From positions 3,226 through 67,225 of the forward strand of contig CANRFT010000006.1 in NCBI GenBank assembly GCA_947629955.1: a DNA stretch of 64,000 bases, read 5' to 3'. The notes beneath the pieces were generated by a model. That model had not been told where the DNA came from. It saw only the letters and a list, made by a program, of their open reading frames with translations, and made no database searches. Made by a program: the position numbers and the translations under genes. This DNA is from an uncultured Oscillospiraceae bacterium (GTDB taxonomy: Bacteria; Bacillota; Clostridia; Oscillospirales; Oscillospiraceae). Within the stretch, counting starts at the first letter, position 1, and every line of letters begins with the position of its first letter. Below, in pieces: positions 20,908-34,819 of the stretch.

Positions 20908-21954
20908 ATGCCGCATAAACGTGTAACCATGCAGGATCTGGCCGACGCCTGCGGCCTCTCCCGGAACACGGTCTCCAAAGTCTTCAATGACCGGGGCGCC
21001 GTGCCGGAGGCAACCAAGAAAGCTGTCCTCCAGAAGGCCCAGGAGATCGGCTATCTACAGACACCTTATTTTCTCGTCCCGGAGAACGAGGCCGCTCCGT
21101 CCCCCGCCCGCCCTCAGAACATCGCCCTGATCACCAGCCACATGCCGAAGGACTACCACTTCGCCATGCTGATCCTGCCCGTCTTTACCGAGCGCCTGGG
21201 CCGCGGCGGATATACGCTGATGATCTATGAGCTCTCCCCGGAGGAGCTTCGGGAGAGACGGCTGCCCTCCCATATGCCCCTGGAGCAGACCGCCGGCATC
21301 CTGGGGATCGAGCTGTTCGACCGGGGCTATATGGATATGCTCTGCTCCCTGGGGCTCCCCGTCCTCTCCGTGGACGGCTACATGGAGGCCATGACCACCC
21401 CCATGAAGTGCGATTTCATCCTGATGGAGAACCTCTCCAGCACCATCGCCGTCACCGGGCGCGCCATTGCCGCCGGGGCCAGGCGGCTGGGTTTCGTGGG
21501 GGACATTGCCCACTGCTGCAGCTTTCACGAGCGGTGGATGGGCTTCTGTCTGGCGCTGGAGAGCGCGGGCGTCCCCCTGGACAAAAGCTGCTGCATTCTG
21601 GAGAAGGACTCAGAGCCCTACGACGATGTGGACTGGGTTCAGGAGCAGCTGCAAAAGATGCCCGTCATTCCGGACGCCTTCGTCTGCGCCAACGACTATC
21701 TTGCCTTCCCTGTGGTGGCGGCGCTGAAGCGTCTGGGCCTGGCGATCCCCAGGGACGTGATGGTGGCTGGCTTTGACGACACGCCGCCCTCCGCCGTGAT
21801 GGACCCGTCCCTGACCACGGTGCAGATCCCCAGCGCTGACTTCGGGCGGATCACCGCGGAACTCCTGCTGGACCGCATCCAGCGCCCCGGCGCCCCGTTT
21901 TTGAGCACCTACGTCAAGACCACGCCGGTCTGGCGGGGGTCTACGGATAAATAA
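20908..21954 (+). CDS. LacI family transcriptional regulator
   Basis: VTMQDLADACGLSRNTVSKVFN HTH; AFVCAND, PRDVMVAGFDD, PSLTTV. Confidence 0.95.
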   Translation: MPHKRVTMQDLADACGLSRNTVSKVFNDRGAVPEATKKAVLQKAQEIGYLQTPYFLVPENEAAPSPARPQNIALITSHMPKDYHFAMLILPVFTERLGRGGYTLMIYELSPEELRERRLPSHMPLEQTAGILGIELFDRGYMDMLCSLGLPVLSVDGYMEAMTTPMKCDFILMENLSSTIAVTGRAIAAGARRLGFVGDIAHCCSFHERWMGFCLALESAGVPLDKSCCILEKDSEPYDDVDWVQEQLQKMPVIPDAFVCANDYLAFPVVAALKRLGLAIPRDVMVAGFDDTPPSAVMDPSLTTVQIPSADFGRITAELLLDRIQRPGAPFLSTYVKTTPVWRGSTDK

Positions 21955-23626
21955 ACGCAAATAAAACAGCCGGTTTCGCAAGAAACCGGCTGTTTTCCGT
22001 GGGCTGACCATCCCAAAATACATAGGCGAAAGGGGTCCCTGTAAAACCGCCCTTTGGCTTTGCGGGGAGAGGAGGAGCAGCGGAGCGAGCGCGCTCCGGC
22101 GTAAAAAACGCCGGAGCAAGCGATACGCAGCTTGCTCCGACGTGGTGACCCGCCTCGTCCAGCGGTCGAACCCGCTGCGCTGCGGCGTCTACTTCCTTCA
22201 GGGTGATCGTGCGATTATCTCCAGAGTAATTGAAGGTGATGGTGCCCCTGTCATCATAGACGAACACCGCGTTGACGAATACTGAGATGATCCTCCGCTG
22301 ACTTTCTGGCTCATTGAGATCCATATTGCGGAATTGCGGGAGGAAGTATTTGATTTGTTCCTGGGTCAGCTTGAAGCCGTTGATCAGCTCCGCGTCGGCC
22401 AGGGCCGCCTCCAGGTCTGCTTTTTGCCGGTCGAGTTCATCCATTCGTGCTTTGGTGGCGGAATTGAAAATGCCCGCCTCCATAGCTTTGATCAGATTGG
22501 AAATGGCTGCCTGTACTTGCCCCAGTTCCGCGCGGAGCGCGTCTGTGTAGGAGGTATCCGTGTTTTGCTCCTGGTAGTAGCGGAAGGTCTGTTCAGAGAT
22601 GTAGTCCACCATCTCGTCGCTCATAACGATGGAGATCGCCTTTTGCAGGACCAGATTCTCGATCCACTCTTTACGGACAGCCCGCTTTCGGCAGGAATGG
22701 TGGTTCTTCTTCCCTAGACAGGTGTAGTAGTAATAGGTGGTGCCATGCTTGCCAGTCCCGCATTCTCCAATCATCGTGCTTCCGCACAGGCCGCAGAATA
22801 GTTTTCCGGTGAGCAGATAGTCTGCTTTTGACCACTTCCTGGCCGGGGCCCGCCTGTTTTTCACAAGAAGGTCCTGGACCTTTGCAAATGTCTCCGCATC
22901 AACAAGGGCGGGGATATAGGCGTCAGGGTACTCTTTCCCGTCGTAGTGGTACACGCCTATGTATTTCTTGTTTTTGAGGACCGCCCGGATGCTGTTCACA
23001 GTCAGAGGTTTCCCTTTCCTGGTTCGCAAGCCTTCGGCGTTCAGCGCCTCGATGATTTCTTTTTGGGTGTGCCCCGCCGCATACATCTCAAAGATGCGGG
23101 TGACCAGAGGAGCGGTCTTGGGATCCGGTTCCAGATGCTTGTCTGGGCCGGTCCGATAACCGAGCGGGAGCGTTCCGCCTATGCTTTGACCTTTCCGGGC
23201 CGCATTGTCCATGCCGCGCTTGACGTTGGTGGCCAACTGCACGGAATAATACTCCGCCATACCCTCCAACACAGCTTCCAGGATGATCCCCTCTGGGGTA
23301 TCGGGAATGCTCTCGGCGGTATAGAGGACTTTAACTCCGTTTTTCTTACAGCGGTATTTATTGAAGGCGATCTCTTCCCGGTTGCGGCCAAAGCGGTCGA
23401 TCTTCCAAATGATAATGGCCTCAAACTGATGCTTGGCGGTGTCCTTCAGCATTTGCTGAAACTGCTCCCGGTCATCGTTGCGCCCGGTCTGTGCCCGGTC
23501 GCAATACTCGTGGATGATGGTGTAGCCGTGCTCTGCGGCGTACTTGTAGGCAGAGGCTAACTGCCCCTCAATGGACTGTTCGCCCTGCTTATGGCTGGAG
23601 TATCGGGCATAGACAACAGCGTTCAT
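21941..23626 (-). CDS. Large serine recombinase; frame reads through the att site
   Basis: YARYSS catalytic Ser, DRFGRN, recombinase domain, zinc ribbon (CGLCG..YYTC..C), coiled coil; codons 493-495 lie in the att core. Confidence 0.93.
   Translation of the reverse strand: MNAVVYARYSSHKQGEQSIEGQLASAYKYAAEHGYTIIHEYCDRAQTGRNDDREQFQQMLKDTAKHQFEAIIIWKIDRFGRNREEIAFNKYRCKKNGVKVLYTAESIPDTPEGIILEAVLEGMAEYYSVQLATNVKRGMDNAARKGQSIGGTLPLGYRTGPDKHLEPDPKTAPLVTRIFEMYAAGHTQKEIIEALNAEGLRTRKGKPLTVNSIRAVLKNKKYIGVYHYDGKEYPDAYIPALVDAETFAKVQDLLVKNRRAPARKWSKADYLLTGKLFCGLCGSTMIGECGTGKHGTTYYYYTCLGKKNHHSCRKRAVRKEWIENLVLQKAISIVMSDEMVDYISEQTFRYYQEQNTDTSYTDALRAELGQVQAAISNLIKAMEAGIFNSATKARMDELDRQKADLEAALADAELINGFKLTQEQIKYFLPQFRNMDLNEPESQRRIISVFVNAVFVYDDRGTITFNYSGDNRTITLKEVDAAAQRVRPLDEAGHHVGASCVSLAPAFFTPERARSAAPPLPAKPKGGFTGTPFAYVFWDGQPTENSRFLAKPAVLFAFIYP
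21963..21996. terminator. Bidirectional intrinsic terminator (lacI on +; tRNA operon/recombinase on -)
   Basis: AAAACAGCCGGTTTC-gcaa-GAAACCGGCTGTTTT, with a T-tract on both strands. Confidence 0.85.
22032..22142 (-). repeat. tRNA-3'-linked ~110 bp repeat, copy 1
   Basis: Shares GGCTTTG(C/T)GGGGA.AGGAGG.GC, GAGC, GATACG.AG and CCGACG blocks with 34511-34619 and 34712-34819. Confidence 0.85.
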
Positions 23627-24246
23627 TCGTGCCTCACATCCTTAAGCGGCTCCAGGTCGAGAGCCAGACGGGCGGTGTTCCTGTCCTTTAGGGAGGCGGC
23701 GTCATAGGCTCTGGCCACCTCCCGTGCCTCTACCGTGATGTCCTGCGGAGTGTAGGACTTGTCCCCCGTCCACACCTCCAACGGCACTCCCAGGGTGTCG
23801 GAGAGCTGCAAAGCGATGGGGAGGGGCGCATCCTTCATCCTCCGCAGGATGATCGTACGCACCTGACGGTCGGTCAGCCCGGACACCCGGACAAGTCCCG
23901 GAATGTCCAACCCCATCCCTTCCATGACCGAGATCAGGATCTTATAAAAAGGCGGACGGTCCCCGGGACACAGGGAGTTGAAGGCGGCCTCCTCGGCGGA
24001 GTCCCCCATTAGATAATCTGCTGAGACATTCAACGCCTTGGCATACTGCTGTACCTGGGTGATTTTGGGGATACGCTGGCCGATCTCGTACCGGCTGAGT
24101 ACCTGCTTAGAGGTACCCAACAGCGCCGCGAAATCATCCTGAGACAGCCCCTTTTCCTTACGGATCGCCCGGAGACGCTGACCGAAAGACACATACTCCA
24201 CATCTACTGCCGGCGGTTCAGGGTACTCAGTCTTAAAAAAGTCCAT
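23623..24246 (-). CDS. XRE/HTH_3 repressor, possibly with a second HTH-like domain
   Basis: RLRAIRKEKGLSQDDFAALLGTSKQVLSRYEIG; ATGA overlap with the recombinase. Confidence 0.88.
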   Translation of the reverse strand: MDFFKTEYPEPPAVDVEYVSFGQRLRAIRKEKGLSQDDFAALLGTSKQVLSRYEIGQRIPKITQVQQYAKALNVSADYLMGDSAEEAAFNSLCPGDRPPFYKILISVMEGMGLDIPGLVRVSGLTDRQVRTIILRRMKDAPLPIALQLSDTLGVPLEVWTGDKSYTPQDITVEAREVARAYDAASLKDRNTARLALDLEPLKDVRHE

Positions 24247-24977: not shown

Positions 24978-26063
24978 ATGAAACTGCACGAAAATCAACT
25001 GAATTTGATTCGCTTTTTAGCGCGGTTCAATCTGCTTGATTACCAGGACTGCCTGCAATTTCTGGATACGGCAGGGACGGGCGACCGCACCGCGCTCTCC
25101 TATATGTTCCGGCCCTTGACGAAGAACGGGTATCTTATCAAGCATAAAGACGGCAGCGTCTCCATCTCGGCGAAGGGCCGGGCCTTATTTCCGGAGATCA
25201 CTCCGCTGATCTCTACTGGCGGCAGAGGGCCAGAACAACATAGAGTGATGAAAGTCTCCCATGTGGCGGCCCTGATGGATCGAAACGGTATCCCGGCATC
25301 CGCGAAACCGTCGAAGGACGGCGAGCCTCGTTTTATCCCATCGGCTTGCTGGCGGAATATTGCCCCTGGGATCTTGTCCACCACGCGCTTTGTCGGTGTG
25401 CTGACGGCTGAAGAACACCGCCTGGCAGTCTATGATATTGGGGACGGCAAAATGGAGTGGCAAGTCCGGGCGGAAGGATCTCTGTTTTATACCAAGTATG
25501 GGAGTTATAAGACAATGGCCACAGGAATGCTGCTGATTTGTCGGGAGGACGATTGGGATCAGATCGCCAAAAACATTATCCGGCATACCATGTGGCACCG
25601 CCGCCGGCTTATGAAGGATCGGTGCCTGGAGCGGAACAGACCTACACGCTGGTCCAGATCTCCCATTGTACTGCGTTCCAAGTATGAGCATGTCTATCTC
25701 ACTACGCCGAAGCGGCTGGCGAAAAGCCTCCGGCTGATTTGGGAAGAAGAGGAGTACATCGAGGATTTTCTCGGTAATGCTGTCAAAAGTAATGAGCCGC
25801 AGATGTGCGACGCTGAACTCTGACCCCGGCGCTTGTTCGTAAATCCAGCCACTGATTTGTTGAAATATGTATACTTTTTTGCGGCGGTCAAAGATCAGTT
25901 GAGTCTATTGAAGGATGAGCGTTTCTTTATCAGTCCCATTCAGTATGAAATCTATATCCAGCCGGCGGATCGGGCGATTCTACAGATGTACCCGGAAATC
26001 GTCAGGGAGGAGAGTGTAACAGTCTATGTATATCGATCTGAAGAAGACGATGGAGACGATTGA
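24978..26063 (+). pseudogene. wHTH protein (replication/relaxation-like?) interrupted by an in-frame TGA at 25821-25823
   Basis: The 281-aa ORF and the following 76-aa ORF are in the same frame: ...GAA CTC TGA CCC CGG CGC TTG TTC...; no RBS before the second ORF. Confidence 0.55.
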
Positions 26064-26595
26064 GCGGTGCCTGCCGGAAAACGAGGCCGCCACTCTGCCA
26101 AGCTTGCAGCAAGCTTACCGGCATACAATCCGTCTGCAAAGCCAACTTCTATCCGTCATTTATGATATGGAGACATTCGGCACCCACACAGAGCGGGATC
26201 CGCCCCCGCTGGCGAAGCAACTGAGCGCGGGAGGAAATGCCGGCCATGCGGTTACGCTGACGATCCAAGAGCCGCTGCCTGCCATGAAATATCTCTCTGA
26301 ATCTGTGGAGGAACACTGGAAAGCAATGATCCACTCGGCGATCGCTGATGCGGCGGCACTGGGACCGCTCCCTTACTTTGCGAAGGCCTTTGTAGAGATT
26401 GAGATCATCACTCCCAAAGGGGCCAATAACAGCCGCGTGTGGGATACCTCCAACCGGGCCATCAATGTGATCATCAACAACCTGAAAGGAATCTTTTTTC
26501 GGGACGACGATATGGGGCACATGGCTTTCTCGGTGGTAGGAAGGTGGGGTGAAGAAGGTGTCACGATTATTCGTGTTTCGGACTTTGACAAATAA
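26026..26595 (+). CDS. Hypothetical protein with a degenerate RusA-like C-terminal half (start may be 26050)
   Basis: VWDTSNR..IINNLKGIFFRDDD resembles RusA D-x-D-N..D-x-L-x-G..DD. Confidence 0.5.
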   Translation: MYIDLKKTMETIERCLPENEAATLPSLQQAYRHTIRLQSQLLSVIYDMETFGTHTERDPPPLAKQLSAGGNAGHAVTLTIQEPLPAMKYLSESVEEHWKAMIHSAIADAAALGPLPYFAKAFVEIEIITPKGANNSRVWDTSNRAINVIINNLKGIFFRDDDMGHMAFSVVGRWGEEGVTIIRVSDFDK

Positions 26596-27281: not shown

Positions 27282-27310
27282 TTGAAAAGAGGCTGTGTTT
27301 GTTATAAAAT
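27282..27310 (+). promoter_or_regulatory. sigma-A promoter of the cargo operon
   Basis: TTGAAA-N17-TAAAAT, then AGGAGG at 27339-44. Confidence 0.65.
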
Positions 27311-27353
27311 AATAATTAGAAGCAGCTTTCCCAAGATCAGGAGGTCGGTACCG

Positions 27354-28781
27354 GTGCTGAATAAAGAATATATCTTAGAGACCATCCGGCCCTACCTAAT
27401 TGAAGGAAAAAAACTTCGGGAAAGTGATTTTGACCAATTATTTTCTGAACTTACCCGTAAAGAGCAATATCAAATCATTGAAATTTTAATCGACGAAGAT
27501 ATCGACTATGTTGATGATGAAATGGATCCCACTATTGCCCAGGAGAGTACTATAGACATACTTGCCGAAATTGAGCCAGAGCAAATTACCGAGACAAAAA
27601 AGCTATCTACAGCGAAAAAATCCACCATGGGAGGAGATGCTAAACAGCTCCTCGGCCTTAAAAACGAACAATTGTGTACTCTATATCAGCAGGGAGAGTC
27701 TCTCGCTCTTGAAGCGCTGATCCTTAAAAATGAGAAATTTGTTTATCGAGATGCCCTTATCCTTTCAAGACAGTTTAAGCAGAACAGCCTTACGATAGAT
27801 GACATTGTTCAATACGGAAATATCGGACTAATTGCGGCAGCAGATCGTTTTGATGCTACTCGTGAATGTTCATTTTTGACATACGCAGGCCACTGGATTA
27901 AGCAAAGCATTATCAGGAATATTATTGACCATGCATATATGATACGGTTGCCTGTCCATGTAATGGAACGGGTGCGCCGTTTTTGGGGTATACGTGCAGC
28001 ACATCCCGATTTTACTGAAACTGAATTGATCAATGAAATTATCACATTAGGATATGCTACATCGGCAAAAGAAATCCGCTACCTTCTTAACCTCGGTGAT
28101 CAATATTTGAATACTACCAGCCTTAATGTCCTAATTGGCGAAGATGAAGAAACAGAGCTTGAGGAATTTATCCCTTCGGATATTTCAGTGGAAGAAGTCG
28201 TAGATCAAACATTGCTTCGGGAAAGCTTGGAAAAAGTGTTATCCATGCTTACGCCACGAGAGGAAAAAATTCTTCGCCTTCGGTTCGGGCTTGATGATGG
28301 CATCGAGCGGACTTTGGAGGATGTTGGCAAGATATTTGACGTTACACGAGAACGAATCAGGCAGATTGAAAACAAGGCGCTAAAGAAATTGCGACATTCA
28401 TCAAGGGCCAAATACATTCGTGACTTTTACGGTGACAAAGCGAAGAAAAAATCTTCTTCCAAAAATAAACTGAAGCCAACACAGCAGGATGTTACTCCTA
28501 AGCAACAACATAGAGAATCCTTTGACTTTTTCGCAGACACAGAATTCGATACCCAAATACAAGAGGTCTTGAATCATCTTACCGAAAAGGAAGGTTTTAT
28601 CTTCTCGTTAAGGTTCGGAATAGATTATGGGCATTGTTTAACTCCGGAAGAAATGGATACTCTTTACGGAATCAAAAAAGAAGAATTATATATCGTAGAA
28701 AACAAAGCATTGTTTCAAATGGATGCTTCATTTCGAGAAAAGTTTAAGGCTATATTCTATGGAAGGAGCGCACAAAAGTGA
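27354..28781 (+). CDS. RpoD/SigA-like sigma-70 factor with an additional C-terminal region-4-like domain
   Basis: GTG start after AGGAGG; region 2 (QYGNIGLIAAADRFD..FLTYAGHWIKQSI), region 3 (IRLPVH..SLNVLIGEDEETEL), region 4 (RTLEDVGKIFDVTRERIRQIENKALKKLRH), second LTEKE..LRFGID..ENKAL block. Confidence 0.88.
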   Translation: MLNKEYILETIRPYLIEGKKLRESDFDQLFSELTRKEQYQIIEILIDEDIDYVDDEMDPTIAQESTIDILAEIEPEQITETKKLSTAKKSTMGGDAKQLLGLKNEQLCTLYQQGESLALEALILKNEKFVYRDALILSRQFKQNSLTIDDIVQYGNIGLIAAADRFDATRECSFLTYAGHWIKQSIIRNIIDHAYMIRLPVHVMERVRRFWGIRAAHPDFTETELINEIITLGYATSAKEIRYLLNLGDQYLNTTSLNVLIGEDEETELEEFIPSDISVEEVVDQTLLRESLEKVLSMLTPREEKILRLRFGLDDGIERTLEDVGKIFDVTRERIRQIENKALKKLRHSSRAKYIRDFYGDKAKKKSSSKNKLKPTQQDVTPKQQHRESFDFFADTEFDTQIQEVLNHLTEKEGFIFSLRFGIDYGHCLTPEEMDTLYGIKKEELYIVENKALFQMDASFREKFKAIFYGRSAQK

Positions 28782-31700
28782 TTGTGGATAAAATTCAAGA
28801 ATATATTGAGAAACATAATGGCCCTGGAACACTTTTTGTAATCAAAGGATATGCCTTCACAGAATTTGAAAGCTGCAATGCATCGCTGGAAAGGACACTG
28901 AGGGACAAAGGTGCCCGATTTATGGAAATTCTTCAACAGCCCACAAAGGTTGTCCTCTATGAAGAATTTATTTGTCTTCGAGAGATTATTCTTTCGATGT
29001 TCTCAAAAATCTATATTTTTGAGAACATCGATTATATAAATCTGTTCCCTGTCCGTGTGAACCTTCAGCCAGAAATTATTTCTGCGTTGTGCGTACATTA
29101 TGACGAAGAATCCCAGGAAGAGATCTCGCTGGAACATTTAAGCGGCTATATTGATATTTACAGCAACTTTTTAAAGATTGGGGATTATTTCGCCTGCCGC
29201 TATAATTTGGATGAAAGTTATCTGCTCAGCGAAAAAATTGAACGCCTGTTTATTTCAGAAGATGAGCCATGTGATTTATGTACATGCGAAGTAGATAACG
29301 AAACCATTTTGACCATTTGTGAGGAGAGTGATTATTTTTCCTTAGCATACGGTTTAGAGGTGTCAGATACCGTCTTTGCGGTTGCGTTGGACAGTGCTTC
29401 CGTAGGAAAAACTGTACTGCAGGACAAGCTGCGGGGACTATGCGGAAAATATCCCAACAGACTGTTCAACTATGTTCCCCGAGCGGATAAGCAGATTCGG
29501 AAGTGCCCGCAAGAGATATACGATACGCTTGGCCGCTACTGGGGATACGATACTTTCCGGTCAATAAAAATGTATGACGTGGCCGCTGTTGAAGATCATC
29601 AAAAGAAAGTCATCACGATCTCGCAGGAAGACATTATTTGCGATCTTATTGAACAGGCGGAAAATTGTGTGGAGGGGAAAACATACCGGGATATATTTGT
29701 AACTGCGCCGACGGGTTCCGGAAAATCATTGATGTTCCAGCTTCCGGCGATTTACTTGGCGGAAAAATATAAGCTGTTGACTCTGGTTATTACTCCCTTG
29801 ATTGGGTTGATGAAGGATCAAGTTCAAAATCTTGAGGAACGGGGATATTTTGGCGCCAAAACCATCAATTCTGACATTTCTCCGATTGTTAGAGAGGAGA
29901 CCCTTGCCGCGGTTGCAAATGGGGAGTGCGATATTTTGTACTTATCTCCAGAATCTTTATTGAGCCGCAATGACGTGGAACAACTCATTGGGAAACGCAG
30001 GATTGGTATGCTTGTTGTGGACGAATCTCACATTGTCACAACGTGGGGAAAGCAATTTCGCCCGGACTATTGGTATTTGGGGGATCACATTCGAAAACTC
30101 AGAAAGCGCCAGTCTCAAAGGGAAAACGATCCTGCTCCGTTTATTATTGCCACATTTACTGCAACGGCGATTTACGGCGGAAGCGAAGACATGTATCACG
30201 AAACGCTGAATAGTCTCCATATGGTGAATCCCATTACCCATTTGGGACATATCAGGCGGAGTAACATTTCTATTGAAGTGACTCAGGCGGAAAAAAGAAC
30301 CCGCAATGAGTACGAGAGTGACAAATTTGACTTTTTAATTTCAGAAATCCATAAAGCGCTAATCCGTGGACAGAAAGTGTTGATTTACTTTCCGACAGTC
30401 GTCCTGATTAACAGCTTCAAGTCCTATTGCTATGCCAAAGGCCTTGGAAAACACCTCTCCATTTACCATGGCCAGTTAGATGCCGACGAAAAGGACTTCA
30501 ATCTCAATGAATTCCGTAATGGCAACAGACTTGTTATGGCCGCAACAAAGGCGTTTGGCATGGGCATCGACATTCCAGATATTAGCATCGTCATGCATTT
30601 TGCACCTACTGGGAATGTGTGCGACTATATGCAGGAGATTGGTCGCGCTGCGCGAAAAGCGGAGATTGATGGACATGCCATCTACCAGCATATTAGCGAT
30701 GACTTTAAGCACATTAACAGGTTGCATGGACTTTCGACCATTAGGAACTATCAACTTATCGAAGTCATTAAAAAAATCCTGGAACTTTACACGGCCTCCC
30801 GTTATTCTGAAAAATCTAAGCCTCTCACCAAAAAACGGAATGAGATGCTTGTGGATGCGGAAAGTTTTGCCTATATTTTTGGAGCGGCATCGGCAGATGA
30901 TAGCGATTTGATTGCAAAAGTAAAAACGGCGATGCTGTTGATTCAGAAAGACTACGAGCGGAAAGGATTCGCACCATTTTACATGAGACCGATCCCCGTT
31001 TTTGCCCATGGCTATTTCGCAATTCCGATTACTCAACAAGCAAAGCTAAATCGAAAGTATCCTGTTGCCGCGCAACTGGTTTTCCGCGAAAAGAATATAT
31101 TCAAAGTCGATCTGCGCTTGATTTGGGATCGGGAGTACAGCAGAGAAATGTCCTTTCCGAAATTCAAATACCTGCTTTACACGCAGAGCCCGGAATTATC
31201 ATTTAACGAGCAATTCTCTCTGACGCCGGCAATGTCTATTGACATCACGCTGGCAGATAACAGCGGGCTTATATTTGACTCCGTCATAAATGCTTTGCAC
31301 GGTATATTCCAAGAGTCGATTTCCTCGGGGAACTACCTGAAGGAATCCATCATTTCAGAACGGCTTGCATCTTTGTGCAGTTCCTTGGGCATCAATCGTT
31401 ATAGAGCGCAAAGCGCAATTAACGTTTTTTTTGCGGCTGCCAACACATATGCAAGTGAATACTCTAAGCGCCTCAATGGAAGGCTTTATCTCACTCGGGC
31501 AACCCATGCGGGAGACACGTCATATTCCATCAGGTCTTCTATTCAGGACTTTTTTAACTGGATCAAACGCCGCTTCAGGGAGATTTTAACACAGTCGATC
31601 CCTGCTGATTCGGAGACTCAGCGTAAATTGTACCTTATAAACGACAGTCATAATACGCAATGCAAGGAGTATCTAACCTGCTTAGGTGTCTTGGAGACCA

Positions 31701-32314
31701 TGGGGGTTCTTCGTTTTAAGTCGCTGGGCGGCTCAAATAGCCAGCTTTACATCTATGTAAACTCGGTAAAGGATATGACCATAGTCAGAGACCGCCCTGC
31801 TAGCTACATAAACCGACTGCTGGAATTGGTGAATAAGCGGCATAGAGATTCCGTTGAAATGTTGACGTACTTATTCCAGAACGATTTTACAAGCGAAGAA
31901 ATCTGGGATCATTTGGAGAACTATTTTCTTGGAATCATGCCAGATACATTTGGCGGGAAGACTGTCATGGACACATCCATTGATTGCGACGACAGAACTG
32001 TTATTCTCCAGATTGGCGATGATTTTAAAGAAGATTACACGTCTTGGAGCGAGGCCGCGATTCTGTTTGATGATTTTCAAACCGAAAAACTTGACCTCGC
32101 AGGGATACCTTTGGCTGACTACTACAGCGCAAAGCTGTATGCCGGCAGTCAGTATGTGGATGTCCTCCTTGCTTGGCAGAGTCAAAAAATAGCTTTGGTT
32201 GATGTCAATATTCCTGACGAGCTGGGCGAAACCTTTAAAGAGAATGGATGGCTTGTCTGCCAGTGCAATACCTTGGACTTAGATAAAATGAAACACAGAT
32301 TTGAGGAGCGATAG
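28778..32314 (+). CDS. Large RecQ-like SF2 helicase with long N- and C-terminal extensions
   Basis: APTGSGKS, PLIGLMKDQV, VDESH, WGKQFRPDY, TATA, ATKAFGMGID, QEIGRAAR; GTGA overlap with the sigma gene. Confidence 0.92.
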   Translation: MIVDKIQEYIEKHNGPGTLFVIKGYAFTEFESCNASLERTLRDKGARFMEILQQPTKVVLYEEFICLREIILSMFSKIYIFENIDYINLFPVRVNLQPEIISALCVHYDEESQEEISLEHLSGYIDIYSNFLKIGDYFACRYNLDESYLLSEKIERLFISEDEPCDLCTCEVDNETILTICEESDYFSLAYGLEVSDTVFAVALDSASVGKTVLQDKLRGLCGKYPNRLFNYVPRADKQIRKCPQEIYDTLGRYWGYDTFRSIKMYDVAAVEDHQKKVITISQEDIICDLIEQAENCVEGKTYRDIFVTAPTGSGKSLMFQLPAIYLAEKYKLLTLVITPLIGLMKDQVQNLEERGYFGAKTINSDISPIVREETLAAVANGECDILYLSPESLLSRNDVEQLIGKRRIGMLVVDESHIVTTWGKQFRPDYWYLGDHIRKLRKRQSQRENDPAPFIIATFTATAIYGGSEDMYHETLNSLHMVNPITHLGHIRRSNISIEVTQAEKRTRNEYESDKFDFLISEIHKALIRGQKVLIYFPTVVLINSFKSYCYAKGLGKHLSIYHGQLDADEKDFNLNEFRNGNRLVMAATKAFGMGIDIPDISIVMHFAPTGNVCDYMQEIGRAARKAEIDGHAIYQHISDDFKHINRLHGLSTIRNYQLIEVIKKILELYTASRYSEKSKPLTKKRNEMLVDAESFAYIFGAASADDSDLIAKVKTAMLLIQKDYERKGFAPFYMRPIPVFAHGYFAIPITQQAKLNRKYPVAAQLVFREKNIFKVDLRLIWDREYSREMSFPKFKYLLYTQSPELSFNEQFSLTPAMSIDITLADNSGLIFDSVINALHGIFQESISSGNYLKESIISERLASLCSSLGINRYRAQSAINVFFAAANTYASEYSKRLNGRLYLTRATHAGDTSYSIRSSIQDFFNWIKRRFREILTQSIPADSETQRKLYLINDSHNTQCKEYLTCLGVLETMGVLRFKSLGGSNSQLYIYVNSVKDMTIVRDRPASYINRLLELVNKRHRDSVEMLTYLFQNDFTSEEIWDHLENYFLGIMPDTFGGKTVMDTSIDCDDRTVILQIGDDFKEDYTSWSEAAILFDDFQTEKLDLAGIPLADYYSAKLYAGSQYVDVLLAWQSQKIALVDVNIPDELGETFKENGWLVCQCNTLDLDKMKHRFEER

Positions 32315-32316
32315 AG

Positions 32317-34041
32317 ATGGCCAGGATGATTCCCAGCAATGTTACCCACGAAGAATTTCATGGTAGTATCGGTGAGGAACGCACCTACAACGCACTGTCT
32401 ACGCTGCCGGATGAGTATGTTATATTTCATTCGGTCCATTGGAACAAGGCTTGCTCAAGTGGGAGAGTTGTCTGGGGGGAATCGGATTTTGTTGTCTTCC
32501 ATCCGAAGCGCGGGCTACTTGTCATCGAGGTTAAATCCGGCGGCATTGCCTGCAAAGATGGCCGCTGGTATCAAACAAATACTTTGACAGGCGAGTGTAT
32601 GCAGATGAAACGTTCGCCCATGGCGCAGGCTGAACGAAGTAAGTTTACATTTGTGGATCTTTTGGCAAACTCAAAATTGGATACAGTCAGGAATTACTGG
32701 GTGGAATGTGCGGTTTGGTTTCCAAGTGTCAATGAGCGTAGCAAAATTGGAGATATGCCTTGTGAGTATTCTGTGGGGAATGTACTCTTGCAAAATGATC
32801 TGAACAATCCTGGCGTAGCCATCATGCGAGTTTTCGACTTCTACAAAATGCACGCACCCTTTAATGCCTCTAAAGAAGAAACCGATGAGGTTATTCGCAT
32901 TCTATCCCCCAGTTTTGATGTTGTTCTTACCTTCTCAGGTAAGGCCATTGAGCAAGACTATTGTTTTAACCGAATGACAACGGAGCAAAGCTATTTGCTT
33001 GATTATCTAGAGGAACAACGTGTTGCAGCCATTCAGGGCGGTGCCGGAACGGGGAAAACGATGTTGGCAATTGAGAAAGCCCGGAGACTGGCAGAAACGG
33101 ATCAGGTTCTGTTTCTATGTTTCAACCGCCATTTGCTACAATATCTCCAGAGCTCCTACGGGACTGCCATTCCCAATATTACATTTACAAATCTACCCCA
33201 ACTTACCTGCAGACACATGCAAGTCCTTGATGCCGGTGGAGATGAGGGGATATCCCGGTATCTCAATGAATATGATCGGCACTCCTGGCCCTATCGTCAT
33301 ATCATCATTGATGAAGGGCAGGACTTTGCCGAACACCATCTGGAACTCCTCTACACCATAGCCGAAATAGCAGATGGCTGTTTCTACATTTTCTACGACA
33401 AAAACCAACTTGTCCAACAGCGGCAGACCCTGGATTGGGTTAACCGTGTTGAGTGCAGATTAATTCTTTCTCGCAATTGCAGAAATACCCGTAGCATCGC
33501 AGTGACATCGTACAAGCCCCTTGGAATTGAGAAAATCAAAATGCGATTAGATGTTCCGGGGCAGAAACCGACTATGTATCTCTCCAGGAATATAGAGGAT
33601 GCACAGCAAACTATTGGATCTGTAATTCACAACTACACACAGCAGGGGATTCAGAAAAAGCAAATTGTAATTCTCACTGTAAAAACAGAAGATACGTCGA
33701 TTCTGTCTGGCGTTTCCTCTATTAGAGAGTACCCACTTGTTCCCAATCGGGATGATAGTGGGATACTGTTTACATCTTCCCGCAAATTCAAAGGCTTGGA
33801 ATCAGATGTCGTTATCGTTGTGGACGTAGATAACAGCTGTTTCCTTGACGATGAAAAACGGAGAGTGTTCTACGTGGGAGCATCAAGAGCAAAACATTAT
33901 CTGGATATCGTATCTGTGATGAGTGATGAGGAAACGAATAGCATGGTTTTGCTTTTAACTGGTGAAAAAAAGAAGAACGCTAAATTAGCGTTGGGATCAT
34001 TCTTAAAAGTTAAAATTGTTTCTGGTGGCACAACGTCTTAG
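32317..34041 (+). CDS. NERD nuclease fused to an SF1 (UvrD-like) helicase/ATPase
   Basis: ESDFVVFHPKRGLLVIEVKSG nuclease motif; GGAGTGKT, IIDEGQD, RNCRNT, FKGLESDVV, YVGASRAK. Confidence 0.9.
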   Translation: MARMIPSNVTHEEFHGSIGEERTYNALSTLPDEYVIFHSVHWNKACSSGRVVWGESDFVVFHPKRGLLVIEVKSGGIACKDGRWYQTNTLTGECMQMKRSPMAQAERSKFTFVDLLANSKLDTVRNYWVECAVWFPSVNERSKIGDMPCEYSVGNVLLQNDLNNPGVAIMRVFDFYKMHAPFNASKEETDEVIRILSPSFDVVLTFSGKAIEQDYCFNRMTTEQSYLLDYLEEQRVAAIQGGAGTGKTMLAIEKARRLAETDQVLFLCFNRHLLQYLQSSYGTAIPNITFTNLPQLTCRHMQVLDAGGDEGISRYLNEYDRHSWPYRHIIIDEGQDFAEHHLELLYTIAEIADGCFYIFYDKNQLVQQRQTLDWVNRVECRLILSRNCRNTRSIAVTSYKPLGIEKIKMRLDVPGQKPTMYLSRNIEDAQQTIGSVIHNYTQQGIQKKQIVILTVKTEDTSILSGVSSIREYPLVPNRDDSGILFTSSRKFKGLESDVVIVVDVDNSCFLDDEKRRVFYVGASRAKHYLDIVSVMSDEETNSMVLLLTGEKKKNAKLALGSFLKVKIVSGGTTS

Positions 34042-34057
34042 GGGTATAAAAGAACAA

Positions 34058-34093
34058 AGATAGAGCCAAGGCCTTATGGCCTTAGCTCTATCT
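34058..34093 (-). terminator. Element-borne terminator, better on the minus (tRNA operon) strand
   Basis: 16-bp hairpin; its single C-A mismatch on + is a G-U pair on -, followed by TTGTTCTTTT on -. Confidence 0.7.
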
Positions 34094-34149
34094 CTTCTTC
34101 AACCGCAAATACATTCCTTACAACAAAGAGGGTTCGTATCTGCGCGTTT

Positions 34150-34225
34150 TGGTGACCCGTCGGGGGCTCGAACCCCGGACCTTCGCCTTAAAAGGGCGTT
34201 GCTCTACCAACTGAGCTAACGAGTC
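34150..34225 (-). tRNA. tRNA-Lys(TTT), integration target
   Basis: GACTCGT/ACGGGTC acceptor stem, anticodon loop CTTTTAA, CCA; 76 nt. Confidence 0.93.
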
Positions 34226-34510: not shown

Positions 34511-34619
34511 GGGGTCCCCGCAAAGCCGTCCCCCAGGCTTTGTGGGGAAAGGAGGCGCAGCGGAGTGAGCGAGACCTGCCGCTTGCGGCGGGGCGAACGA
34601 TACGTAGCTTGCGCCGACG
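34511..34619 (-). repeat. tRNA-3'-linked ~110 bp repeat, copy 2 (directly after tRNA-Arg CCA)
   Basis: Block similarity to copies 1 and 3. Confidence 0.85.
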
Positions 34620-34696
34620 TGGTACGCCTGAAGGGACTCGAACCCCCGGCCCGCTGCTTAGAAGGCAGCTGCTCTATCCACCTGAGCTACAGGCGC
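34620..34696 (-). tRNA. tRNA-Arg(TCT)
   Basis: GCGCCTGTAGCTCAG, anticodon loop CTTCTAA, CCA; 77 nt. Confidence 0.95.
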
Positions 34697-34711
34697 ATAT
34701 TGTGCCCTTTC

Positions 34712-34819
34712 GGGGCCCCCGCAAAGCCGCTCTCCAGGCTTTGTGGGGAAAGGAGGCGCGACGAAGTGAGCGAGCTCTGGCCGCAGGCCGGAGCGAGGGA
34801 TACGCAGTCCGCGCCGACG
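34712..34819 (-). repeat. tRNA-3'-linked ~110 bp repeat, copy 3 (directly after tRNA-Gly CCA)
   Basis: Block similarity to copies 1 and 2. Confidence 0.85.

Follow-up and report, generated by a model that had tools for sequence, protein, structure and literature searches.

A sigma-70-family factor paired with a RecQ-like helicase in a tRNA-Lys island of an uncultured Oscillospiraceae bacterium

Sigma factors are the specificity subunits of bacterial transcription, and to our knowledge only one other sigma, MzaA, has a place in a catalogued system. MzaA is likewise a sigma-70-family protein within an anti-phage operon, MZA (NF041931; PDLC02203), where its partners are MutL-like, Z1 and AIPR proteins. 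The helicase family C3a193 ("poss. alt. Cas3") is cluster 193 of Shah et al. 2018, which was defined by its proximity to type III CRISPR-cas, with its function untested there and without a described sigma partner (PMC6546367). The operon reported here lies in a 64-kb window, the whole stretch of DNA that was analyzed, from an uncultured Oscillospiraceae bacterium of the gut (contig CANRFT010000006.1). It consists of three co-directional low-GC genes at 27354-34041 that encode a sigma-70-family protein, a RecQ-like superfamily 2 (SF2) helicase and a nuclease-helicase with a NERD and a UvrD-like superfamily 1 (SF1) domain (NERD-SF1). The SF2 helicase belongs to the C3a193 family, which is illustrated by a near-full-length match that includes the C-terminal domain. 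The sigma and the SF2 helicase form the conserved unit, to which the third gene is an accessory specific to a lineage.

The operon and its conserved pair

The genes and signals of the operon are arranged as follows (aa, amino acids; nt, nucleotides).
27282-27310, plus strand: promoter-like site TTGAAA-17 nt-TAAAAT, 44 nt upstream of the sigma gene; 10/12 consensus, the best of the region
27354-28781, plus strand: sigma-70-family gene, 475 aa, GTG start, TGA stop at 28779-28781
28778-32314, plus strand: SF2 helicase gene, 1178 aa, GTG start, TAG stop at 32312-32314
32317-34041, plus strand: NERD-SF1 gene, 574 aa, ATG start
34056-34095, no strand assigned: palindromic hairpin with an 18-bp stem, terminator candidate from a terminator scan, directly after the third gene

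An AGGAGG is located at 27339-27344, and the GTG start of the sigma gene follows nine bases further on. The GTG of the helicase and the TGA of the sigma share the overlap GTGA. A 2-nt gap separates the helicase TAG from the ATG of NERD-SF1, with a GAGGAG inside the 3′ end of the helicase gene. The cassette has a GC content of 37-48% (about 42%) compared to 63% in the host genome (2.2 Mb, 75 contigs). Across the whole region, promoter-like matches are fewer than in shuffled sequences (7 vs 15), and the site at 27282-27310 alone carries weight among them. Its block TTGAA-N-TTTGYTATAAAATAA is kept in two other lineages (L001/L005 and L007/L017) in surrounding DNA that is unalignable. The hairpin at 34056-34095 is likely the terminator of the operon. 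The initial annotation had described three tightly coupled low-GC genes behind a single promoter, and the open reading frames (ORFs), both junctions, the GC content and the one promoter-like site all agree with that description.

All three genes are under strong purifying selection, with dN/dS values of 0.03-0.11 against orthologs at 71-89% protein identity. The values are 0.10-0.11 for the sigma (0.19 in its C-terminal extension), 0.03-0.05 for the helicase (0.09 in the N-terminal domain and 0.04 in the tail) and 0.04-0.07 for NERD-SF1.

A new system, as proposed in the initial annotation, implied syntenic homologs in other genomes, and these were found. The order sigma, SF2 helicase, NERD-SF1 is shared by loci whose sigmas are 80%, 71%, 49% and 44% identical to this one. 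Their contexts are two chromosomal sites, an island with a tyrosine integrase and a locus beside HsdR and an nSTAND NTPase. In a wider search with a helicase profile, using one genome per species, relatives were found in 184 species of a collection of 185,579. The best 80 of these 184 species were studied, with gene calls from our own ORF picking, and 79 loci were analyzed. They come from Clostridia, Negativicutes, Gastranaerophilales, Mucispirillum and a metagenome-assembled genome of the Desulfovibrionaceae.

A sigma ORF is located upstream of the helicase in 73 of the 79 loci, with a single gene intervening in seven of the 73. Four of the remaining six loci end at a contig edge, one (L055) has a sigma, and only one (L019) is without it. 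When the loci with upstream sequence are counted, the sigma stands directly before the helicase in 74 of 75, and the start and stop codons overlap or nearly abut in the related cassettes too. The three-gene unit of the initial annotation therefore stands for the sigma and the SF2 helicase (74/75), and it has to be narrowed for NERD-SF1, which is an accessory in one clade. The pair also occurs on plasmids of Enterococcus faecium and Lactiplantibacillus plantarum, where the helicase shows 34-37% identity and its neighbor is annotated as "sigma-70 family RNA polymerase sigma factor." The plasmid pairs are WP_053339270 and WP_053339271 in L. plantarum and WP_231411327 and WP_227311111 on pW142 of E. 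faecium.

The two proteins of the pair diverge together. Pairwise identities of sigma and helicase correlate with r = 0.89 (2211 pairs), and with r = 0.74 for the pairs below 60% helicase identity. The helicase tree, which was built by FastTree and has some long branches in its topology, mixes phyla. A distant member of the family (G057, 24% identity) is encoded without a sigma and is followed by a gene unrelated to NERD-SF1. Since distant members lack the sigma, the sigma-linked helicases form one branch of the C3a193 family.

Two of the loci have peculiarities of their own. A locus on a contig labeled Escherichia coli (L067) is nearly identical to one of Phascolarctobacterium succinatutens (L065), probably through contamination of the "E. 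coli" bin, and is not counted as a proteobacterial occurrence. In one metagenome contig of the species with the 80%-identical cassette (L004:11422-21425), the helicase gene stops after 97 codons and is followed by prophage genes. These comprise tail genes, a lysin, XkdX and a diversity-generating retroelement made up of a reverse transcriptase and an Mtd-like gene. The helicase gene seems to have been replaced by a phage or to have served as its integration site.

The three proteins

The following segments were located in the sigma gene.
27765-27923 (approximate), plus strand: sigma region 2 (Pfam Sigma70_r2, 1.5e-11)
28239-28397 (approximate), plus strand: sigma region 4 (Pfam Sigma70_r4, 6.3e-19)
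28545-28763 (approximate), plus strand: extra C-terminal copy of region 4 (38% identity to the protein's own region 4, E 4e-15)

This sigma was aligned with 74 cassette sigmas of other species and the host SigA (MAFFT). The cassette sigmas (75 relatives) keep the core-binding motif DLxQxGxxGL of region 2.2, the motif FSTYA-x-(F/H)-WIKQSITR and the motif IRIPVH. In the second of these motifs, the first of two tryptophans is replaced by F, and by H in this protein. Region 4.2, VTRERIRQIE, is the same as in the host SigA and is conserved in at least 95% of the 75 relatives. Outside of region 4.2, the sigma diverges faster than the helicase. Host SigA and the cassette sigma share 46.5% identity over 217 aa. 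Region 3 passes the Pfam threshold in most relatives scanned, but not in this sigma. No Pfam match to region 1.1 or 1.2 was found in the cassette sigma, and the segment of region 1.2 is a gap in the alignment with the host SigA. For the acidic N-terminal domain, an alignment with region 1.1 of SigA was obtained by MAFFT alone, without Pfam support. The last 90 residues form the diverged second region 4, which is limited to the closest lineages; Pfam gave no match on this C-terminal extension at E-values up to 5.

The protein is a member of the sigma-70 family (any group), which is indicated by both Pfam regions and by the core-binding, -10 and -35 motifs, and it is regarded as RpoD-derived. 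An assignment as the primary sigma RpoD/SigA was rejected on scores of 225.7 against a cut-off of 572 (PRK09210) and 220 against 354 (TIGR02393), and since the full set of regions 1.2, 2, 3 and 4 was not detected in this sigma.

The sigma on the L. plantarum plasmid (L098:4809-6182, NZ_CP028223) carries an N-terminal DpnI_C domain (E 2.4e-18). In DpnI, this domain is a winged helix that binds methylated GATC. By this domain architecture, the N-terminus of the cassette sigma is suggested to be an exchangeable DNA-sensing module.

The SF2 helicase is composed of four segments.
28778-29527, plus strand: N-terminal α/β domain (AlphaFold2 domain model, predicted local distance difference test (pLDDT) 90)
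29678-30664 (approximate), plus strand: RecQ-type motor (Pfam DEAD and Helicase_C)
30725-31957, plus strand: family-specific C-terminal domain (residues 650-1060)
32000-32311 (approximate), plus strand: clade-specific tail (~110 aa)

The AlphaFold2 model of the full helicase has a pLDDT of 83, and its best folds in the PDB are RecQ catalytic cores (E 2e-22) in a structure comparison by Foldseek against the PDB and BFVD. The Walker A lysine K316 and the DExH-box residues D415, E416 and H418 are invariant in 73 relatives. The N-terminal domain (pLDDT 89.6) gave no significant Foldseek match, with a best E of 0.1 and a TM-score of at most 0.24 in the PDB and a best E of 0.03 in BFVD. Pfam searches at E-values up to 5 gave no match on the N-terminal domain, the C-terminal domain or the tail. 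A search with the C-terminal domain found 375 representative clusters among 1.84 billion proteins. The extra tail of ~110 aa occurs in most helicases of clade I of the helicase tree. A restriction-endonuclease-like nature of the tail was considered and rejected, as it has no Pfam support and the ExK-like EQK of two related loci (L011 and L012) reads SQK here. An origin of the pair from phages was rejected as well: in phage records, matches to the helicase do not extend past the generic RecQ core, and PHROGs gives generic sigma and helicase families only.

The third gene contains two domains.
32362-32724 (approximate), plus strand: NERD nuclease domain (Pfam NERD, 2.4e-13)
32974-33921 (approximate), plus strand: UvrD-like SF1 helicase domain (Pfam UvrD_C_2 and AAA_19)

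In NERD-SF1, the residues D57, E71-V-K73, the Walker A lysine K247 and D332/E333 are invariant in eight orthologs. The catalytic motifs of the RecQ-like helicase (Walker A and DExH), the NERD domain and the SF1 helicase, which the initial annotation had listed as targets for mutation, are thus intact and invariant in the relatives. NERD-SF1 is confined to clade I, where it takes the downstream position in eight of the 13 rows of the tree. In clade II, 18 loci encode another SF1 protein of 655 aa, whose N-terminus (DVDLF...IEIKSH) shows a PD-(D/E)xK/NERD-like pattern and which matches the PADLOC model C3a187, "NERD+UvrD." Its gene is located before the sigma or between the sigma and the helicase, and its loss separates loci with near-identical helicases such as L032 and L035. 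About two-thirds of the loci have no third gene. The recurrence of the same three parts in shuffled order in clade II is good evidence for a functional trio.

Mobility, neighbors and possible function

The operon is located on an element of ~12 kb with the following further features.
22143-22152, no strand assigned: left attachment core TGGTGACCCG, the displaced 3′ end of tRNA-Lys
34150-34225, minus strand: tRNA-Lys(UUU), found by ARAGORN; its 3′ end at 34150-34159 is the right copy of the core TGGTGACCCG
21941-23626, minus strand: large serine recombinase (Pfam Resolvase, Recombinase and Zn_ribbon_recom)
23623-24246, minus strand: XRE-family helix-turn-helix (HTH) regulator (Pfam HTH_3, 1e-18)

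The insertion into tRNA-Lys, which the initial annotation had recognized, is real and recent because the core is duplicated, sister species have empty sites and the helicase is absent from the other species of the genus that were searched. The core is present twice, at 22143-22152 and 34150-34159; the flanks, when joined in silico, align unbroken in three sister species (G020, G002 and G026); and the helicase is absent from 36 of 36 other species of the genus searched. The three genes are regarded as a horizontally acquired accessory operon. Their description as the whole cargo was a slight overstatement: the operon makes up most of the element, and aboard are also the recombinase, the XRE regulator, a small ORF with a weak HTH_17 match and two ORFs of 281 aa (24978-25823) and 189 aa (26026-26595). 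The latter two have no Pfam or PHROG family and may be further cargo or serve functions of the element.

Two observations concern the borders of the element. The ORF of the serine recombinase crosses the left core at 22143-22152 into host DNA, and the flank provides the codons for the last ~67 residues, which form a low-complexity tail. Therefore, the C-terminus would differ between the integrated and the excised state. A GC-rich repeat of ~110 nt (...CCCGCAAAGCC...GGCTTTGYGGGGA.AGGAGG...CGACG) is found at 22030-22142, 34511-34620 and 34700-34819. It adjoins the displaced 3′ end of tRNA-Lys as well as the 3′ ends of tRNA-Arg and tRNA-Gly and has many matches per genome throughout the genus.

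Genes of restriction-modification (RM) and toxin-antitoxin (TA) systems are often found among the neighbors of the related cassettes. They include HsdR, HsdS, HsdM, AspBHI/Mrr, a MutH-like restriction endonuclease with a C5 methyltransferase and Vsr, next to a McrB-like AAA_5 protein, an nSTAND NTPase, an HNH-helicase and the toxins Doc and YafQ. The MutH-like endonuclease and the C5 methyltransferase lie alongside the cassette in ten loci of clade II (including L015, L037, L041, L045 and L052). In five of the ten, the next gene after the cassette encodes a methyl-dependent endonuclease of the AspBHI/Mrr type, and in four there is also a gene of 233 aa without assigned function. This looks like a composite restriction island of clade II that travels with the cassette.

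From its context, the cassette probably has a defense role. A role in defense or conflict is favored because of its mobility and patchiness, the RM and TA neighbors, the sigma with DpnI_C and the fact that the helicase families are catalogued only from defense contexts. In the favored reading, with a probability of roughly 45%, the sigma and the RecQ-like helicase, joined here by NERD-SF1, would constitute a defense against invading DNA from phages or plasmids. The sigma would be made together with the RecQ-family helicase and would probably be bound to it. Its task would be recognition, for which it would either bind promoter-like DNA and the core of RNA polymerase or use its variable N-terminal domain. 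Subsequently, the RecQ-like motor would unwind the target, and the NERD-SF1 partner, where present, would degrade it. A role of the sigma as a working subunit of such a sigma-helicase complex is proposed because of the translational coupling, the co-divergence and the retained sigma motifs.

Several results weigh against a defense complex of this kind. The two-gene versions gave no match to a nuclease domain, and no basis for discrimination between self and non-self was identified. A fusion of sigma and helicase was not found among the best 150 of the 375 representative helicase clusters. In a census of 124 neighbors, which had no control set, RM genes and genes for GNAT, ClpB, MCP and transporters are equally common. 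No promoter motif shared across the family was found, with the best sigma-A-like matches upstream of 71 cassettes at 8.9 compared to 8.6 in shuffles. In Selenomonadaceae (L066, L095, L080 and L073), the pair is located between a low-molecular-weight phosphatase gene and trxB in housekeeping surroundings without mobile or RM genes nearby. The helicases there form one clade, and the pair looks vertically inherited.

A more specific form of the favored reading is sigma-guided DNA-targeting immunity, which is conceivable but unlikely in this detail. Here, the RpoD-like sigma would form a holoenzyme or bind promoter-like or modified DNA of the invader and pass the opened DNA to the helicase and, where present, to the nuclease-helicase. 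Its sensor domains would be exchangeable, as the DpnI_C domain in Lactiplantibacillus may illustrate.

Alternatively, the sigma could act as a decoy that mimics region 4 of the housekeeping sigma. The binding of a phage anti-sigma or of a phage protein that appropriates sigma would then release or activate the helicase and the nuclease. The identity of region 4.2 to that of the host SigA across relatives from several phyla, next to the faster divergence of the remaining protein, fits such a role, and the translational coupling suggests a stoichiometric complex. However, all working sigmas of groups 1 and 2 conserve region 4.2 to the same degree, so that this is not diagnostic. The residues for core binding and -10 melting as well as region 3 are also kept, which a pure decoy would not need, and we know of no phage partner of the cassette sigma. 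The sequence conservation fits a decoy no better than a functional sigma. As it extends to the core-binding and -10 residues, the complex is favored over a pure decoy, and the decoy is considered improbable.

It can also be envisioned that the helicase holds the sigma inactive in the manner of an anti-sigma factor. The sensing of foreign DNA would free the sigma to redirect RNA polymerase, either for the induction of effectors or for the shutdown of host and phage transcription (abortive infection). The sigma does have the motifs of a factor competent for RNA polymerase. In this clade, the operon has a sigma-A-like promoter that could be recognized by a factor whose -35 head is canonical, which would allow feedback. 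The N-terminal domain of the helicase, which is conserved and confidently folded without a fold match, is a further point in its favor. A difficulty is that no target promoter conserved across the family was found, and for this reason the sigma-helicase complex is preferred over a plain regulator. In addition, the two-gene versions have no separate effector to induce, and one-to-one translational coupling to an enzyme of 1100 aa is rare for a dedicated regulator. A regulatory role of this kind is held to be of low probability.

Outside of immunity, the pair could be a mobile, transcription-linked unit of genome maintenance, for example, one that removes R-loops or stalled RNA polymerase or resolves conflicts between transcription and replication. 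The Selenomonadaceae pair, which sits among housekeeping genes and follows the lineage, is what would be expected of such a unit. Furthermore, RECQL5 and HelD, both with solved RNA polymerase complexes, appear among the sequence relatives of the helicase cores. A maintenance function is nevertheless quite doubtful, as the cassette is rare and patchy (184 of 185,579 species, and 0/36 of the other genus species searched), is found on islands and plasmids, frequently with RM and TA genes as neighbors, and has a nuclease partner attached. Finally, the three genes could run the transcription and replication of the island itself, as in a satellite or integrative element, and the operon does fill most of a recombinase-bearing 12-kb element that has no other recognizable replication genes; but this is very improbable, as the cassette also occurs without an integrase, at chromosomal sites and on plasmids with their own replicons, no phage record holds it, and neither helicase type is replicative.

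The sigma, which is obligately paired with a giant helicase and co-evolves with it, is mobile among gut and rumen bacteria of at least five phyla-level groups, and plasmids of cultivable Lactiplantibacillus and Enterococcus carry it too. The pairing points to an undescribed way in which DNA surveillance is coupled to RNA polymerase or to the recognition of promoters. If its role is not defense, it would still be a new mobile helicase module associated with RNA polymerase. The cassettes are self-contained units of 4.5-6.7 kb with clear catalytic residues.

Comparison with known systems

The initial annotation had expected that the gene set matches no named system, and neither PADLOC nor NCBIfam gives a fit at the level of a system. 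Full-text literature searching found no description of a pair of a sigma and a RecQ-like helicase. Assignments of the set to MZA, RecQ proper, a primary sigma, Gabija, Nhi, PsyrTA or Dpd were rejected on scores, coverage and partners. The further claim that no described system pairs such helicase and nuclease genes with a primary-type sigma has to be qualified: the set is indeed unnamed, but with MzaA there is a precedent for a sigma-70-family protein in an anti-phage operon.

MzaA is the best PADLOC match of the cassette sigma (1.4e-46) and also its top NCBIfam match. The match reaches 233 bits against a cut-off of 800, and only positions 491-720 of the 726 model positions are aligned. The cassette sigma was rejected as an MzaA on this score far below the cut-off and on the restriction of the match to the C-terminal third of models of ~700 aa. 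The partners differ as well, as no Mza model is found for either helicase among the best 25 PADLOC matches listed.

In the SF2 helicase, residues 246-1052 match positions 221-980 of the 983 in the PADLOC model of C3a193 (3.9e-139). The difference lies in the surroundings. The association with type III CRISPR-cas is not seen here: no cas genes were found on the island, the part of the 64-kb window that was covered, or among the annotated neighbors of the related loci.

NERD-SF1 matches the PADLOC model RTasNERD-Hel over its full length (8e-72, residues 1-533 against positions 1-511 of 519). In contrast to that system, no reverse transcriptase is found on the island or adjoining the orthologous cassettes, and the reverse transcriptase of L004 belongs to the inserted prophage. 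C3a187, Nhi and GajB are partial matches, with Nhi and GajB aligning over short stretches only, and the operon has no GajA-like partner as would be typical for Gabija.

PsyrTA/RqlHI and Dpd have the RecQ-type motor in common with the SF2 helicase (PsyrT 3.7e-50, DpdF 7e-64). These matches are limited to residues ~303-650, and the partner genes and terminal domains are unlike. RecQ proper, the family of E. coli RecQ and human RECQL5, provides the best sequence and fold matches of the motor, namely 4tmu, 1oyw and 6crm as well as RECQL5. The helicase scores 167 bits in the recQ_fam model against a cut-off of 219.8 and has no Pfam RQC or HRDC domain. About 250 N-terminal and 500 C-terminal residues of this helicase have no counterpart in RecQ proper. 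If the cassette acts in defense, it would represent a new architecture among helicase-nuclease systems and a comparable case for MzaA.

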